DNA of 64,000 bases. It comes from Thermodesulfobacteriota bacterium (GTDB taxonomy: Bacteria > Desulfobacterota > Desulfobacteria > Desulfobacterales > C00003060). The DNA is taken from the NCBI GenBank assembly GCA_034189385.1, contig JAXHVD010000010.1, forward strand, positions 64,001 through 128,000. Reading direction: 5' to 3'. Position numbers: made by a program. Below are positions 21,001 to 39,000 of the stretch, piece after piece (position 1 is the stretch's first letter; each line of letters begins with the position of its first letter).

Positions 21001-24000
21001 GGATGTAAACTCAGCCTTTGATCCATTTCAATATCTCGTCTTTCTTGGGGACCTTTCCCGCACATTTCACCTCGCCGTCAACGACCACAGCCGGGGTGCC
21101 AAATACCCCGTGGGTGGCGATCTTCATGATGTCAGTCACCTTCTCAATGTTGGCATCCACGCCGGTCTCGGCCACTGCGGCGGCCGCATTCTTTTTCGTC
21201 TGTTCACACTTCGGGCAACCTGGCCCCAATACCTTTATTTCCATTTTGTGCCTCCTATTTGCTCCAGCACTAGACGCCTTCACGGAACCACCCCTTAATC
21301 CTGGTCTTAGTGGCAACGTTGCCCACAGAGACCACCTTTCCATTCACAACCAAGGCAGGGGTGCCTATCACACCGTAACTGGCAATCACCTTCATGTCCC
21401 TTACATGTTCTATGGCTGCGGCAAGGCCCATCTCTGCCGCCACCTCCATGACGTCTCTCTCCAGCCCTTCGCACCGGGCACATCCAGGCCCCAGAATCTT
21501 AATCTCCAGCCCCTCGGAGGTCTCTTCTTCATACGGCCTTCCGAGCAACTTGTTGAACTCCCGTAGAAGGGCTTTTCCATACGCTTCCTTCGAGGCCGCC
21601 GGGACATAGTTCTTCTTAGAAACCCGTCTCATTAACTCCGCCCGCACTTCCCTCTCGGAACGATGAGCCCATTCTGCTGCCATCTCTTCCATGACCTGTT
21701 TCAGGCCGATCATGCCGACTGATTGCTGATTGACTCTCATCTGTGTTACATCTTCCTGGGACATAGTTCTTCCTTAGACAACCACGTTAAAGAGATAACC
21801 CACCAGCAAGATTCCGCACCCGACCACGCAGATAAACGCACCGATAAGCCGAGGTTTCAGAACTTTTCTGAGGATCACCATCTCAGGCAGCGAAAGGGCG
21901 ATCACGCTCATCATGAAGGCGAGCACTGTGCCGAGTGCGGCCCCCTTTCCAAGAAGGGCTTCCACCACCGGGATGATGCCCGCGGCATTAGAATACATGG
22001 GCACCCCGATAACGACAGCCAGCGGCACGGACCACCAGACCCCTTTGCCCATAACAGAGGCCATGAAGCTCTCCGGTACGTAGCCGTGTATGCCGGCACC
22101 AACGGCAATGCCCAGCAGGACATAGATCCAGATCCGACCAACAATCTCCTTCACTGCATCCCAGCCATACATCATCCGGTCATGCCAAGAGAGTCTTTCC
22201 TCCTGGGCCTGAATCACGCCGCCTTCCAATCCTGCGACCCATTCTTCAACATGTCTTTCCAGGCGCAGGCGACCGATAAGCCAGCCGGAAACAATGGCAA
22301 TAGTAAGCCCTGTACCCATGTAGAGGGCGGCCACCTTCCAGCCAAGGAGTCCGTAAAGCAGACCCAGGGCGATTTCGTTGACCATGGGAGCAGAGATGAG
22401 GAATGAAAAGGTCACCCCCAACGGCACCCCTGCGGTGACAAATCCGATAAATAGAGGCACAGCAGAGCAGGAACAAAAGGGGGTCACAATGCCGAGAAGG
22501 GCCGCCAGGGTATTGCCCACAAACTCCGTTTTTCCCGATAAGATGTCCCTGGTCTTTTCCGGCGTAAAGAAGCTGCGTACTATTCCTACGCTAAAGACAA
22601 CCAAGACGAGAAGCATCATGACCTTGGGCGTGTCGTAGAAGAAGAATTCCACGGCAGCGGCCATGTGGCTACCCGGACTGAGCCTGAAAACCGAGTATGT
22701 AATAAAGGCCGCAAGCAGAGACAGTCTGCCGTAAATCACCCACCACACAAAGAGGGTGATGGCACCAAGTCCCAAGTAGAAGACCTTTTCCCTCTTAAGA
22801 CCTGATGGGGTCTTCCCCTGGGCTTCGGCACAGGCACACGAACCATTGGCAACCGGTTTCACAGCACGCACTGTCATGGCGCCTCACCATGTGGCGAGAC
22901 CCTGTCCGTTGACCAGGACGGATAGCGCTTGAAAGCCATAGCAATATTCCTATTTAGCTATAGATTAAGGACAAAAAAAATTATTTCCTGCAAATCTCTT
23001 CTCGTCGAATTGATGGAAGTTCTTCTACGATGTCAGCGATCTCTGCATCATCTTCCAGCCAGTGCCTCAAATTGCCCAGCAGGTTGGCCACATAGGGACT
23101 GGCGCTTCCGTCCGTGAGTCCGTAGTTGACCCACATGCCCTCTTTCTGAGACGTAATAATGCCTGCATCTTCGAGTATTTTAAGATGCTTAGACACGCTG
23201 GGCTGCGCTATCTTGAGAGCAGCCCGCATCTCGCATACACACATGACCTTGTGTTGCAACATCTTTACAATTCTTACCCTGTTGGGATCGGACAGGGCCT
23301 TCATGACCCTGATAAAATCTCTCATCATACATTCCAGATATATGCCTTTTTGGGAATATACCCCCTTTGCTTTGCATTGTCAATTAAATTTTCGCGCTCG
23401 AAGAAAAATGGATACCGCCCAGAAAGGTTTTCTCAAGACGTCAAAGGTGATGAAATCGAAAAAAGTCGAAAAAGACCTCTTTTTGTCATTCCGGCGAAAG
23501 CCTGTCGAGAGCCTCAAGGCCGAACGGCCGGAATCCAGTCCTTTCAACAACTTCTGGATGCCGGATCAAGTCCGGCATGACGACTGAAAGACCTTTTACG
23601 AGTCTGTCAACGGTGAAATGATGATCGGGGGGCAGGCGGAGACTATTCTAAGCTATCTTTGAAGGTCTGCCAGCCGATAAGCATATCGGCCATATGGTGA
23701 TAGACGGTGCGCGTTTCTGGACTCACGCACCCCAGCTTCTTGATGGCTTGCTTGGCCCGTTTCTCAAGGAGGTCTATCTTTTGGTCGCCCTCCTTAACCT
23801 GGGCACTCACGTCCTCATTATTGTCCATTCGCCCTTTGAGCCGCGTGGCCAAGGCCTTGGCATCTGAAAGCTCTTTCAAGAGTTGACTCGTAGCGTCATC
23901 CATGGACACAGCACTCCTCTCGGCGGTATGAAATCTAGCTCTTGGAGCCGAAAAAGTCGTCAAGGTATATGACATTTCCTTCGGTCTTCATTGAGCCTGA

Positions 24001-36000: not shown

Positions 36001-39000
36001 TCTCCATCTGCAGACAGACCTGTAGGCCGTCATCGGTGACGCCCTTTTCAACACGCAGCACCACGCCGCTTTTTGTAATGATTTCGTCTCCCATCTCATT
36101 AGAGCAAAGGTGTTCGCAGGGTGCACCCCATCCACCCTTGATGACGCCGGTATCCCTCAGGCATCCTCTCTTTCCTGCAGGCTTTAGACATTTAGCATAG
36201 GTGTTCTCAACAAATTTGGGCAAGGCTCCTAAGAGTACATCTGCCCACAGGCAATTGAATTTGGAAACGTCTGAAACTCCCTCAGGAGTGAGCCATTTTC
36301 ACATTGAACCGCCTGTGGCCCTAAGTTTTTGAGGACTTACTAGCATAGTCATCAAGTTGCCAACATGCAAGAAATTTGACAGGGTTGACAATGATGACAG
36401 CGGCCTGCAACACAGCACAACAGCGGCAATATCAGACAGAAAAACACCCAAAACACGGGCAAGCCGCGCCATTTTCGTTTGACAGGATCGTGGTGGGAGC
36501 CTATAGTTGCATAGTCCATGATCTAGACACTGTAAGGAGGGTCCCATGTGCAAATGTTGTTCAACCGGAAAGGGTGCCGGGAGGAAAAGACACTACGAGT
36601 TCCTCCATGACCATGGAACTGACGGTGCTGGCCACGACCATGAACACGACCATGAACATCATCACAGTGACGGCGAAGACCCCAAGGGGATGGTAGCTCC
36701 CGTGCCTGGAGAAAAATAGGGGCTGCACCGGGAATAGAGGCACGCAGGTGCCTTCACCCTGGAGGACAGTATCATGTGTGAGGCGAATGCGTATCTTGTA
36801 AAAGATGGCAAGGAAGAGCTTTTTCTTGCGGCCATTGATACCGTAGAACCTGACAATGGAAATCTGCGCCTTACGACCATATTCGGCGAACAGAAGTTCA
36901 TCAAGGGAAGGATCAGCCGTCTCGCCCTTGTGGATCACAAGGTCATTATCGAACAGACAGAGGAATAGAAAACCCTCCTTTTTCTAGACCCTTTTCTAAA
37001 AAGCCGCCAAGGTCTCCATCCCCCCAGATACCCAAGCGGGTCAGAGAAAAATCATACTTGACCGGGTCCTGCGGGGCCACGGCCCTGAAACCTTTCGTGA
37101 TCTCCATGGCTGTTCGCATGTCTGCCTGTCTCCGTCTTGTGAATCCAGCCCCAAGACCTATTCTGTGCATATGCGTATCCACAGGAATAACGAGTTTTGA
37201 TGGAGATATCTCCTCCCATCCGCCAGGATCCACTTCGTCTTGCCGCACCACCCACCTCAGGAACAGGTTCAGTCGTTTGCAGGCACTCCCTTTCTCTGGA
37301 GATGGAACCAGATGATGCACGGGACCGTCAGCACTTGCCGTCAATTTCTTCGCGAAGGCACAAAGGGCTGGAAGTATCGTATCGTCGTCATCATGCAAGC
37401 CTTCTGCAAAACAGGTATGGAGATAGCCGTAACGTTTCAGAACCCTTTTGATACCGACTAGCATGGCACAAAGGTTCTCGTCTGTGGTGAAACGATGCTT
37501 GAAGCCCGAAAAAGTCCGGCGAATTGTTTCAGGAGAGGCCTTATTCAGAAAAACCCGCGGACCAGGCGTCATCCGTTCAAGCACACGGACGACGCTCTTG
37601 CAAATTTGAGATACCCTTCCATAGGCAAGGGACGAGGCGACAAATGCCACGATTTCACGGTCGCAAAGGGCTCCGTAAGGGTAAAGAAACTCCAGAGGGT
37701 CAGGATGGACATGCTCGCGCCGATTGTATCGCCTGTAAAGGGTCTCAAAGACATCGTCGATGATCATCTTCTCCCACACCTCAAAAGGGACCTGTTCACG
37801 GGCCCGCCGCAGGCAGTCGCTCTGGAACAGGTACAGCACAGCTGGTCATCACGATTCCTGCAGGCGCGCCAGGTTGTCCCTGGCAAATTCAATGGACGGA
37901 TCCAGCTCGAGGGCGAGTTGATAGTGTCGAACGGCCAGTTCCGTTTTTCCCATGTCTCGATAGTTAGATGCAATGTTCGCATAATCAATGGCAGAACTGG
38001 GATCCAGATCAAGTACCTGCCGAAAACACGCAATCGCCTTTTCGTGCTCCTTTAACTTGAAGTAACAGAATCCCATGAGGTTGTAGATATCGGTCCTCTC
38101 GTCATCATAGCCCTCTGCCTTCTCCAGGACCCTGATCGCCTCCCGGTACTGACCCAAATCCTTCAAACACACTCCCATGTAAGAATAGATGCTTGCCCTA
38201 TCCTCTTCCTTGGGATTCAAAGTCAGGGCCTCCTCGAAGAACTTCCAGGCCTCGGCAGGCTCGTTCATAGAAAGATGGCACGATCCCAGGAAGAATTTCA
38301 CGAAGTACTTTCCAGGCATGAAGACATCCAGCCTCTGAAGTTCGTCGATTCTCTGTTCAGGGTCCCCATTTTCTGCCATGAGCTTGGCTAAAAACATGGC
38401 CACGCTGGTCCCAGCAGCCCGTTCCCGAAAATGCGCCCCTGGTATGATGGTATAAAAGGCTGGGACTTGAAGGATGGGGTTGGTGACATTGACCACGATG
38501 ACCTCCATACCGATCTTGGACAACGTCGAGACACAGTTTTCCACCTCCACCTTCATATTGTCATGAGAAAGGTCCGGCAATTCAGAGATGCCCACTTCCC
38601 TATCGCAACGAAGCACAAAGTCAGCTTCCTCGATGGTCCTGAACTTTGGAAGGCCGCTGGCAACATAATTGGAGCCAGTGTTGAAATCTCCGGCAAGCTG
38701 GGCAACCTCCGTCAGGGCTCGATTCAGTGCTTTCTGTGGATTCGGTGTGGTACCTGCCGTCCAGACGATCTCGCTTCTTTGGGGAAAGGTGGATGGGTCA
38801 TAAGCCAGGGCGCCCACAGTGGGGATGCCGGTGTTGAAGGAAAAGTCAGAGATAAAAAGCCGCACGCCAGCCTTTTCGTATTTGCCTATCATCTCCAGGG
38901 CCACCGGATCGCTTATTGAAGCCTTGCGAATGGCCGGAATCCCAAGCTTGTTCTGGCTGATCATGGATGAGACATGCCGCTCTATGACTTCGCATATCCC

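Follow-up and report, generated by a model that had tools for sequence, protein, structure and literature searches.

Gene cluster and glucan genes

The window (the whole 64,000-nucleotide stretch of DNA that was analysed) carries a minus-strand cluster in which an alpha-glucan, water dikinase (GWD) homologue is encoded together with GlgA, two GH57 proteins, a DUF4912 protein and a GH13 amylase. Read along the minus strand, the features are as follows:

32618-36094, minus strand: GWD-like alpha-glucan, water dikinase, 1158 aa (stop TGA at 32618-32620)
31810-32625, minus strand: endonuclease-IV-like TIM-barrel (AP_endonuc_2) putative metalloenzyme, 271 aa from the ATG at 32625
31542-31738, no strand assigned: MITE-like repeat of about 200 nt with inverted ends, between the TIM-barrel stop and the GH13 start
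30200-31504, minus strand: GH13 amylase-type enzyme (hDGE_amylase/Alpha-amylase), 434 aa (Pfam)
29269-30090, minus strand: DUF4912 protein, 273 aa (Pfam)
27626-29254, minus strand: GH57 branching-enzyme-type protein with BE_C, 542 aa (Pfam)
26065-27540, minus strand: glycogen synthase GlgA (ADP-glucose type), 491 aa (NF001905)
24821-26029, minus strand: second GH57 protein, 402 aa (Pfam)
23935-24789, minus strand: PAC2-family protein, 284 aa, the last gene of the same-strand run

Pfam confirms the neighbours named in an earlier note on this DNA (PAC2, GH57, GlgA, GH57+BE_C, DUF4912, hDGE_amylase/Alpha-amylase and a TIM barrel overlapping the GWD stop). GlgA scores 891 bits with NF001905 (cut-off 560); the GH57+BE_C protein reaches 341 and 308 bits with the NCBIfam branching models, both under the equivalog cut-offs, and the second GH57 protein has a distant match to the GH57 4-alpha-glucanotransferase 1k1w. 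The closest solved relatives of the GH13 enzyme are small alpha-amylases (4gkl, 3dhu) and GlgE maltosyltransferases. The core of the DUF4912 protein (residues 47-165) is an FN3/Ig-like beta-sandwich, and its tails are disordered; in two other loci (L071 and L078) DUF4912 is joined to a GT4/GT5-like glycosyltransferase. The MITE-like repeat has 30 additional matches elsewhere in the genome.

GlgA, GH57+BE_C, a second GH57 protein and DUF4912 on one strand are also found in ordinary GH57-type bacterial glycogen clusters, from which the present one differs by its extra GWD/TIM/GH13 module. This module is rare: among 400 further genomes sampled from the phylum, only 8 have the GWD His domain. The gene order GWD-TIM-(dikinase 2)-GH13-DUF4912-GH57-GlgA is repeated at loci of several phyla; at least one glycogen gene is present in 34 of the 46 GWD loci of at least 15 kb. 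Of the 47 loci whose flank reaches 8 kb or more, 28 have a same-strand GH13 gene downstream of GWD. The locus is contained in none of the RNA runs.

Outside the cluster the genome has glgC, glgP and one small DSPc match, and its four CBM48 matches are GlgB, GlgX and two small ORFs. GlgX is an ordinary bacterial equivalog. GH77 and GH14, which handle maltose and malto-oligosaccharides, were not found in this genome, which is 90% complete. The small DSP phosphatase had been listed in the earlier note; among 41 relatives compared (11 GWD-positive and 30 GWD-negative) DSPc occurs in 3/11 and 10/30, respectively, so it shows no link to GWD and the DSP was rejected as the glucan phosphatase acting with GWD.

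The dikinase and its bacterial relatives

The GWD gene lies within a minus-strand ORF (32618-36223); initiation at ATG 36094 gives 1158 aa, and alignments with relatives begin at residue 1-5 of this product. All five GWD domains are present, and all Pfam matches exceed the curated cut-offs:

35738-36076, minus strand: first CBM45-type Ig-like domain, residues 7-119 (Pfam PF23166)
35306-35641, minus strand: second CBM45-type domain, residues 152-263, with W184, W194 and W252
33992-35254, minus strand: helical central domain, residues 281-701 (PDB 9ha9 alignment)
33656-33979, minus strand: phosphohistidine domain, residues 706-813, with the His767 codon at 33794-33796
32636-33592, minus strand: ATP-binding (PPDK_N-type) domain, about residues 835-1153

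The domains claimed earlier were all found again: two copies of Ig_N_CWD1 (the better at residues 152-263, E 9.4e-50), GWD1_pHisD at 706-813 (E 4.9e-39) and PPDK_N (PF01326) at 956-1029 (E 3.3e-25), beyond which invariant columns extend to residue 1152. Residues W40, W50, W58 and W108 of the first CBM45-type domain are, in an alignment, common to eukaryotic GWDs, and residues 281-701 match the solved central domain of the chloroplast GWD of potato (9ha9, 9qvi; E 1.6e-92). The His motif VSHVAIRARN reported earlier is indeed present, with S766-H767, of which H767 is the catalytic His. According to two papers (PMC12892837, PMC13553574), His992 of potato GWD is essential and E900, E901 and R904 face it; the aligned counterparts of these three residues are E675, E676 and R679. 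Across 14 bacterial sequences no change is seen at H767, E676, R679 or C782, and E675 and the Trp residues of the CBM45-type domains are almost invariant; all of these align with eukaryotic GWDs. Identity to angiosperm proteins is 43% for Gossypium GWD1 (P0145; E 7.5e-257) and 41% for Nymphaea GWD2 (P0153), in agreement with the figure of about 40% given before. The protein is apparently a full-length and catalytically intact GWD homologue. It shares with plant GWD1 the five-domain architecture, the catalytic His motif and the central-domain Glu/Glu/Arg; of the regulatory CFATC pair of land plants it lacks the first Cys, as do the three aligned algal sequences.

A relative of this GWD is encoded by 283 of 291 candidate stretches from species-representative genomes, whose record titles name Desulfobacterales, Nitrospirota, anammox Planctomycetes, Verrucomicrobiota and others, and 568 clusters (50% identity) match it at E<=1e-30. 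The labelled bacterial GWDs form one clade in a tree of 73 rows (support 95) and again in a second tree of 25 rows (SH-aLRT 89), apart from the eukaryotic sequences in both. Judged by these sequence comparisons, the family is bacterial and selected, and the present GWD is a member of the bacterial clade, not a recent plant import. The label "plant-type" misleads, since the protein belongs to a large bacterial clade separate from the eukaryotic sequences.

The TIM-barrel partner

The start of the TIM-barrel gene overlaps the GWD stop (ATGGGTGA), and its reading frame stays open upstream to an ATG at 32760. The earlier note recorded the overlap correctly and treated the gene as a mere neighbour, but it is the most informative partner of GWD. 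In the 66 related loci whose flank reaches 900 nt or more, the TIM-barrel gene lies directly 3' of GWD 55 times and is missing from that position 11 times. Of the same 41 relatives, 9 of the 11 GWD-positive genomes have it, each time on the contig that carries GWD, and none of the 30 GWD-negative genomes does.

The AF2 model of the protein has a pLDDT of 92.8, and its only three PDB sequence matches are MJ1311, Mycobacterium tuberculosis endonuclease IV and the ASFV AP endonuclease. It has the fold of endonuclease IV (Escherichia coli Nfo) and CbiR, two phosphoesterases of the AP endonuclease 2/xylose-isomerase-like TIM-barrel superfamily (PF01261), and all nine Nfo metal-ligand positions; these Nfo residues, which we take to be the metal ligands of endonuclease IV and whose identities matched the Nfo sequence, align to H75, H109, E140, D173, H176, H204, D213, H215 and E249, although the counterpart of Nfo H216 is H204 or H206 depending on which of two alignments is used. 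The nine positions are invariant in 21 TIM sequences, free-standing and fused. The relationship is very distant (hhalign probability 79% for Nfo and 73% for the sugar epimerase UlaE; the top NCBIfam match, the phosphodiesterase CbiR, scores 36 bits, below its cut-off of 105), and endonuclease IV and CbiR act in DNA repair and cobamide remodelling, whereas the present protein has a glucan gene context.

Among the best 120 longer homologues, 90 combine the TIM barrel with GWD1_pHisD and PPDK_N, two with pHisD and four with GH13 (an architecture that was confirmed), while in 24 the barrel is the sole Pfam domain; the one of these checked consists of TIM plus the central domain. Many relatives have a second dikinase, GWD-like but deeply diverged, whose N-terminus carries the barrel where GWD has its two CBM45-type domains. 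Two GWD matches are present in 6 of 10 GWD-positive genus relatives, as had been noted, but the second copy is this TIM-barrel/dikinase fusion and not a plain duplicate. The present genome has the free-standing barrel only. Being conserved, translationally coupled to GWD and endonuclease-IV-like, the TIM barrel is likely to be the phosphate-removing half of the system, a candidate phosphoglucan phosphatase of a non-DSP kind.

Proposed reversible glucan phosphorylation and its alternatives

Since GWD is full-length, apparently intact and situated among alpha-glucan genes, phosphorylation of the storage glucan is its natural reading. With a probability of roughly 55%, the module carries out reversible glucan phosphorylation, with the TIM barrel as a candidate non-DSP phosphoglucan phosphatase. 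GlgA and the GH57 branching-type enzyme would synthesize an intracellular alpha-glucan, and GWD, the TIM barrel and GH13 would form a three-gene mobilisation module. The two CBM45-type domains would hold GWD on the glucan; the enzyme would be autophosphorylated at His767 by ATP and would then hand the beta-phosphate on to a glucosyl hydroxyl that the central domain keeps in place, as the full conservation of architecture and residues suggests. By analogy with plants, the phosphate esters would loosen packed chains and so open them to attack by the GH13 amylase, by the GH57 enzymes and by GlgP and GlgX. Points against the reading as a whole are the preference of plant GWD for crystalline substrates and the lack of GH77 and GH14 matches. 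The TIM barrel could then take phosphate off the glucan as an endonuclease-IV-type phosphoesterase with three metals, a role to which its conserved ligands, its strict co-occurrence with GWD and its fusions to glucan-acting domains point; a kinase-phosphatase fusion acting on the same ester would, however, lead to futile cycling unless regulated or site-specific. Such a module suggests that some bacteria, here a host of sulfate-reducer type, add phosphate to their storage glucan and remove it.

Reversible starch phosphorylation in plants and algae employs GWD1 (EC 2.7.9.4), PWD (EC 2.7.9.5) and the phosphatases SEX4 and LSF2; these two and animal laforin are DSP phosphatases that dephosphorylate glucans and are unrelated to the TIM barrel. 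An amylase is associated with the dikinase in the plant system as here, and the second, diverged dikinase of bacterial relatives parallels PWD in having a different N-terminal module, although this is a TIM barrel and not a CBM20. Unlike those of plants, the bacterial genes lie in an operon, and the conserved partner is the endonuclease-IV-like barrel, with no linked CBM-bearing DSP phosphatase. Laforin (CBM20 plus DSP) has the same proposed role, removal of phosphate monoesters from storage glucan, by an unrelated fold and chemistry (Cys-based as opposed to metal-dependent), and we know of no kinase partner for it in animals.

It is possible, if tentative, that the glucan which the organism makes and mobilises is insoluble, semi-crystalline and starch-like, and that GWD is required for opening its crystallites as in plants. 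Both CBM45-type domains and their Trp residues are kept, and the genome encodes branching enzymes of both the GH57 and the GH13 (GlgB) kind along with the debranching enzyme GlgX, although GlgB and GlgX also occur in ordinary glycogen makers. A preprint (10.64898/2026.09.25.754361) reports a perfect correlation of GWD with semi-crystalline glucans, described there for eukaryotes only, and names some Verrucomicrobia as belonging to the few prokaryotes that accumulate starch-like granules; Verrucomicrobiota carry GWD. The proposal would extrapolate from that eukaryotic correlation. Nothing in the sequence reports crystallinity, and no search for granule-bound starch synthase, ESV/LESV or beta-amylase succeeded, GH14 being among the families not found.

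It is rather unlikely that GWD phosphorylates ordinary soluble glycogen chiefly to influence how the polymer is built or what physical state it takes (branching, hydration, particle size, retention), with the TIM barrel trimming or proof-reading the esters. The location of the GWD gene in one run of same-strand genes that includes GlgA and a gene for a branching-type enzyme agrees with this, as do statements of two articles that branching enzymes have a lower affinity for alpha-polyglucans bearing phosphate monoesters (PMC13011383) and that plant GWD in E. coli raises glycogen phosphate five-fold (review, PMC13666283). However, the most tightly conserved partners of GWD are the phosphoesterase and a hydrolase-type GH13 enzyme, the latter also known fused to the barrel, and not the synthase.

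It also seems doubtful that the TIM barrel is a xylose-isomerase-like sugar isomerase, epimerase or lyase acting on a glucan breakdown product, or a non-catalytic phosphoglucan-binding module. Foldseek returns both phosphoesterases and sugar epimerases, with ketose 3-epimerases and UlaE frequent among the top matches, so in the model the fold alone cannot tell the two apart; the deposition of MJ1311, its nearest relative of known structure, names that protein only "D-tagatose 3-epimerase-like protein", and in the dikinase fusion the barrel stands where the carbohydrate-binding modules would be. The invariance of the nine ligands argues against both, and UlaE, used as an epimerase control, is without three of them; the other two PDB matches are endonuclease IV enzymes.

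Finally, it is very improbable that the dikinase acts on some other polysaccharide or a small molecule, as do, according to PMC13553574, the related rifampin phosphotransferase and phenolic phosphate synthetase with the same ATP and His domains, since similarity to GWD spans the substrate-side domains (both of CBM45 type as well as the central one) and alpha-glucan enzymes are its conserved neighbours.

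The dikinase and its gene cluster

A run of minus-strand genes extends in the window from 36094 down to 23935 and opens with a gene for an alpha-glucan water dikinase-like protein (GWD).

Genes of the cluster in order of transcription (families from Pfam and NCBIfam matches; GlgA from NF001905, 891 bits against a cut-off of 560)
32618–36094, minus: GWD-like dikinase, 1158 aa
31810–32625 (open frame to 32760), minus: AP_endonuc_2 (xylose-isomerase-like) TIM-barrel protein, 271 aa from the ATG at 32625
30200–31504, minus: GH13 enzyme with hDGE_amylase and Alpha-amylase matches, 434 aa
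29269–30090, minus: DUF4912 protein, 273 aa
27626–29254, minus: GH57 protein with branching-enzyme C-terminal domain, 542 aa
26065–27540, minus: GlgA, 491 aa
24821–26029, minus: second GH57 protein, 402 aa
23935–24789, minus: PAC2-family protein, 284 aa

The earlier note had listed the same neighbours (PAC2, two GH57 proteins, GlgA, DUF4912, an hDGE_amylase/Alpha-amylase protein and the TIM barrel), and Pfam and NCBIfam read the same families. The base composition of the cluster is about that of the remainder of the window. Immediately upstream of GWD, Pfam identifies a DUF2400 gene and a gene for a YcaO protein that ends in TPR repeats (36946–39579, minus strand), and downstream of the cluster are an ArsR regulator and an ArsP-type permease. 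A DUF2400 gene is likewise upstream in the three closest loci of the prokaryote survey described below (L011, L012 and L014). At the tail of the cluster is a 110-aa ORF (23643–23975, minus strand) that shares 41 nt with the end of the PAC2 gene and matches no Pfam or NCBIfam family. Scans for promoters and terminators gave chance-level hits only, and Rfam has no match at E ≤ 0.1 in 23000–37200. The locus is present in four DNA runs from marine or sediment metagenomes, and no RNA run is among those listed for it; contigs from three metagenome runs include no piece that spans it.

The dikinase matches all three GWD-characteristic Pfam families above their cut-offs, in keeping with the Ig-like pair, phosphohistidine domain and nucleotide-binding domain previously noted, and it is the genome's single GWD gene of this type, also as previously reported. 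Its five domains (two CBM45-type domains, a helical central domain, the phosphohistidine domain and a PPDK-type ATP-binding domain) follow GWD1-type order, the same as in the scheme given for potato StGWD1 in PMC13553574. Residues 281–701 align with the central domain of the potato enzyme (9ha9/9qvi, the sole solved GWD fragment) at E 1.6e-92. H767, in the motif VSHVAIRARN (S-H-x-x-x-R-A-R), is invariant in 14 bacterial sequences and aligns with the catalytic histidine of Gossypium, Nymphaea, Picocystis, Cyanidium and Gloeochaete GWDs; PMC12892837 reports its potato counterpart, His992, to be essential. Residues E675, E676 and R679 correspond to E900, E901 and R904 of the potato enzyme, both in the 9ha9 alignment and in that of the eukaryotic sequences; these potato residues face the catalytic histidine and have a proposed role (PMC13553574). 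In the CBM45-type domains W40, W50, W108, W184, W194 and W252 align with tryptophans of eukaryotic GWDs, and the LHWG/W/W..N motifs of both domains are common to plant, green-algal, red-algal and glaucophyte sequences.

The CFATC pair of redox-regulatory cysteines beside the histidine (potato C1003/C1007) is only half present, the second cysteine (C782) being kept. In place of the first, bacteria have Val, Leu or Phe, as do the three algal sequences, so the pair is a land-plant trait and does not define the family. The protein is very probably an active glucan dikinase, and we infer that it phosphorylates the cell's own alpha-glucan.

A bacterial clade of GWD proteins

Relatives of the dikinase are numerous. 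A word-indexed protein search scored 8,000 candidates, of which 1,933 reached E ≤ 1e-3, and the best 120 of the 1,933 all carry the three GWD Pfam domains; those named among the best 120 come from Deltaproteobacteria, Desulfobacterales, Thermodesulfobacteriota and Nitrospirota metagenome-assembled genomes (MAGs), with one MAG titled only “bacterium” and one entry from a hydrothermal vent metagenome. An exhaustive search gave 5,222, 1,561 and 568 representatives at E ≤ 1e-3, 1e-10 and 1e-30, respectively. A survey that took a single genome for each prokaryotic species gave 291 candidate stretches, 283 of them coding for a GWD relative, and the best 80 of these 283 are in records titled Desulfobacterales or Deltaproteobacteria, Nitrospirota (Thermodesulfovibrionia, Sulfobium, Dissulfurispiraceae), Scalindua and Anammoxibacter, Verrucomicrobiota, Terriglobia, Deferribacteres and Syntrophobacteraceae. 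All of these relatives are from MAGs, and the organism labels are record titles. The gene is patchily distributed: it is found in 10 of 24 other genomes of the window's own genus, in 0 of 16 sampled genomes from other families of the order and in 8 of 400 other genomes of the phylum.

The earlier note called the enzyme “plant-type”. A recent import from plants is rejected by both trees, one made with FastTree and the other by a short IQ-TREE search that used no bootstraps, each rooted on a TIM-fused paralogue (a second, diverged dikinase described below), in which the bacterial sequences form a diversified clade of their own. In the FastTree tree of 132 rows, all 68 labelled bacterial rows fall within one 73-row clade with support 95; five rows counted as bacterial in the trees are metagenome representatives without an organism name. 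In the 46-row IQ-TREE tree (LG+C20) the 25 bacterial rows are a clade (SH-aLRT 89), and another group (91) takes in eight of the nine eukaryotic rows plus a long-branch Margulisiibacteriota row; this mixture-model tree leaves a three-way split open among the bacterial clade, the eukaryotic group and three unnamed metagenome rows. The split between the GWD side and the TIM-fused dikinases has support 100 in both trees, which do not include PWD or PpsA. Bacterial GWDs are 50–65% identical to one another and 41–43% identical to those of angiosperms. From its placement in the trees, the window GWD is related to the eukaryotic GWDs as a sister or cousin and is not nested in plants. The GWD-like Margulisiibacteriota protein (P0253, 1221 aa, from a MAG), whose branch is very long, falls either within the eukaryotic group or close to its base, and it could be relevant to the origin of GWD.

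A TIM-barrel protein encoded next to GWD

When the window's proteins were compared by tblastn with the best 80 of the 283 loci, a recurrent order emerged: GWD, TIM barrel, often a second GWD-like stretch (25–30% identity), GH13, DUF4912, a GH57 branching-type enzyme and GlgA. The C-terminus of GWD is complete in 71 of the 80 loci, 66 of which have at least 900 nt of downstream flank; the TIM barrel is immediately 3′ of GWD in 55 of these 66 and not in the other 11. A same-strand GH13 gene follows in 28 of the 47 loci with 8 kb or more of downstream sequence. The likeliest start of the barrel in the window is the ATG at 32625, which overlaps the GWD stop codon (ATGGGTGA) and is where homology to the relatives begins. 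A barrel profile run over 41 relatives of the window's organism (E ≤ 1e-20) matched nine genomes, every one of them GWD-positive and with the match on the contig that carries GWD. The counts are 9 of 11 GWD-positive versus 0 of 30 GWD-negative relatives; of the two GWD-positive relatives without a match, one is a case of a contig end and the other is a genome 67% complete.

A small dual-specificity (DSP) phosphatase had been mentioned in the earlier note among genes elsewhere in the genome. The DSPc family, the fold of the known glucan phosphatases, does not track GWD (3 of 11 GWD-positive versus 10 of 30 GWD-negative relatives), and its sole match in the window genome is a 161-aa frame on another contig, so that it is rejected on co-occurrence as the partner. 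One relative in the genus (G009) does have a small DSPc phosphatase on its GWD contig (C170, 19926–20231), at a distance of about 6 kb from the GWD genes.

The barrel protein matches the PF01261 superfamily at E 1.8e-21, and its confident AF2 model (pLDDT 92.8) is a xylose-isomerase-like (β/α)8 TIM barrel. Foldseek gives hits at probability 1.00, and the fold matches are mixed, comprising MJ1311, endonuclease IV enzymes of viruses and bacteria, and sugar epimerases; since phosphoesterases and epimerases occur together among them, the fold alone is not decisive. A 21-sequence profile of the barrel finds only three matches in the PDB at E ≤ 0.01, namely MJ1311, Mycobacterium tuberculosis endonuclease IV and the ASFV AP endonuclease. 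The barrel alignment contains unusually many invariant His, Asp and Glu residues. We take the metal ligands of Escherichia coli endonuclease IV (Nfo) to be H69, H109, E145, D179, H182, H216, D229, H231 and E261, and the nfo sequence indeed has H, H, E, D, H, H, D, H and E at these positions. In an hhalign comparison of the barrel with Nfo (probability 79%, E 1.6e-5) these nine positions correspond to H75, H109, E140, D173, H176, H204, D213, H215 and E249, all invariant in the 21 sequences; when HMMER aligns the barrel to the ASFV enzyme, H206 is paired instead of H204, and both are invariant. The single-metal sugar-phosphate epimerase UlaE, used as a control, also aligns by hhalign (73%), yet has Ala, Asn and Lys at three of the nine columns.

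Endonuclease IV also removes 3′-phosphates at the sugar ends of DNA, which are chemically close to the phosphate monoester of a glucan. A role of the barrel itself in DNA metabolism is disfavored by its glucan context. Proven phosphodiesterases of the PF01261 superfamily include endonuclease IV and CbiR, the latter an oxygen-sensitive enzyme (PMC7733943), and CbiR is the best NCBIfam match of the barrel, far under its cut-off. The barrel may be a phosphoglucan phosphoesterase that hydrolyzes the glucan ester, a reading given an even or slightly better chance (about 0.5–0.55). It would differ in fold from SEX4, LSF2 and laforin, which have a DSP domain and a carbohydrate-binding module.

Many relatives have a longer protein, of about 1150–1205 aa, that starts with the barrel and continues with a central domain, GWD1_pHisD and PPDK_N. 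The dikinase part of this fusion aligns with GWD residues 315–1152 at 28% identity and retains the His motif; as the alignment begins only at residue 315, the barrel stands in place of the CBM45 pair. Frame lengths were assessed in the 45 TIM-bearing loci whose downstream sequence is 3.8 kb or longer and in the window's genus, where both fused and free-standing forms occur. A search for longer barrel homologs gave 423 proteins at E ≤ 1e-20, and Pfam content was taken from the best 120 of these.

Forms of the TIM-barrel protein
Survey loci, fused frame (1100 aa or longer): 17 of 45
Survey loci, free-standing frame of at most 340 aa: 16 of 45
Survey loci, frame of 460 aa: 1 of 45
Survey loci, form left unassigned by the ORF rule: 11 of 45
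Genus, frame of 1155–1165 aa: genomes G009 (1155), G012 (1164), G022 (1165)
Genus, frame of 284–324 aa: G000 (322), G006 (324), G011 (285), G015 (284)
Genus, intermediate frame: G008 (797), G024 (672)
Proteins, TIM with pHisD and PPDK_N: 90 of the best 120, many named phosphoglucan, water dikinase by JGI
Proteins, TIM as only Pfam domain (505–814 aa): 24 of the best 120
Proteins, TIM with GH13: 4 of the best 120 (P0386, P0406, P0407, P0432)
Proteins, TIM with pHisD: 2 of the best 120

P0338 (694 aa), the one compared among the 24 TIM-only proteins, has the barrel and then a dikinase-type central domain, and stops just short of the His domain. In the four TIM–GH13 fusions, verified for P0386 and P0407, the domains (hDGE_amylase/Alpha-amylase) are ordered like the separate genes of the window, and the fusions agree with the window order GWD, TIM, GH13. 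By three independent routes, the fusions connect the barrel with domains that act on glucan. When fused, it could be a phosphate eraser, or a phosphate-recognizing targeting module for a PWD-like second dikinase, PWD itself being an enzyme that requires pre-phosphorylated glucan. At two distant loci an ORF of about 380–440 aa lies between the TIM–dikinase fusion and GH13 (L012:9300–10628 and L037:17123–18265); it matches no Pfam family and has no counterpart in the window.

Glucan metabolism and significance

Outside the cluster the genome carries glgC, a full-length GlgP, a classical GH13 GlgB and GlgX, as well as dsrA with an adjoining, weaker dsrB-like match; no GH77 or GH14 enzyme was found in the genome, which is 90% complete. 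Phosphorylation by GWD would assist mobilization of the glucan by the GH13, GH57, GlgP and GlgX enzymes, and the barrel, as the candidate phosphoesterase, would hydrolyze the phosphate ester placed by GWD. That the storage glucan is semi-crystalline, as the earlier note proposed, seems rather doubtful. It is improbable that bacteria of several phyla, mostly titled anaerobic, have a full reversible cycle of glucan phosphorylation of their own, in which GWD and often the second dikinase write, and an endonuclease IV-type three-metal barrel, an unrecognized phosphatase class, erases, on an insoluble and at least partly crystalline glucan, with eukaryotic GWD descended from or co-ancestral with the bacterial system.

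The GWD homology itself is not new, as had been pointed out before: among the best 120 proteins, JGI automatic names include “alpha-glucan, water dikinase”, and NCBI names are PEP/pyruvate-binding domain-containing or hypothetical protein. In the open literature, the range searched (subscription sources and book chapters lay outside it), neither bacterial GWDs nor the barrel partner were found described, and recent reviews state that the prokaryotic machinery is unknown. The broad bacterial clade and its conserved candidate phosphatase are directly testable with recombinant proteins. The barrel offers a candidate for a new, non-DSP type of glucan phosphatase, and the compact bacterial GWDs could be of use in structural work and in the engineering of starch phosphate. 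The clade is relevant, too, to how a hallmark enzyme of starch metabolism in eukaryotes arose, and its occurrence in slow-growing anaerobes (titled sulfate reducers, anammox bacteria and Nitrospirota) is a pointer to an unusual long-term carbon store.

A possible role of DUF4912 in GH57-type glycogen clusters is that of a module for glucan binding or priming. The window's DUF4912 protein has no sequence match in the PDB, and its model is confident for residues 47–165 only, where an FN3/Ig-like β-sandwich is predicted; the structure matches are generic FN3 domains (Z about 9) and thus say nothing about function. At two Nitrospirota loci (L071:18113–19810 and L078:7120–8844, both minus strand) DUF4912 is N-terminal in a 566–575-aa protein and is followed by a GT4/GT5-like glycosyltransferase.

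Between the TIM-barrel stop and the GH13 start lies a repeat of about 200 nt (31542–31738) with inverted ends (GTTGCCCAAA...TTTGGGCAAC) that looks like a MITE. It has 30 further blastn matches over the genome's contigs at 72–97% identity, some of them partial, and it causes a depth spike in metagenome contigs. One contig of metagenome run X1 joins 31525 to 31810 by 72 different letters in place of the 284. The repeat sits exactly where the dikinase part of the fusion lies in the relatives.
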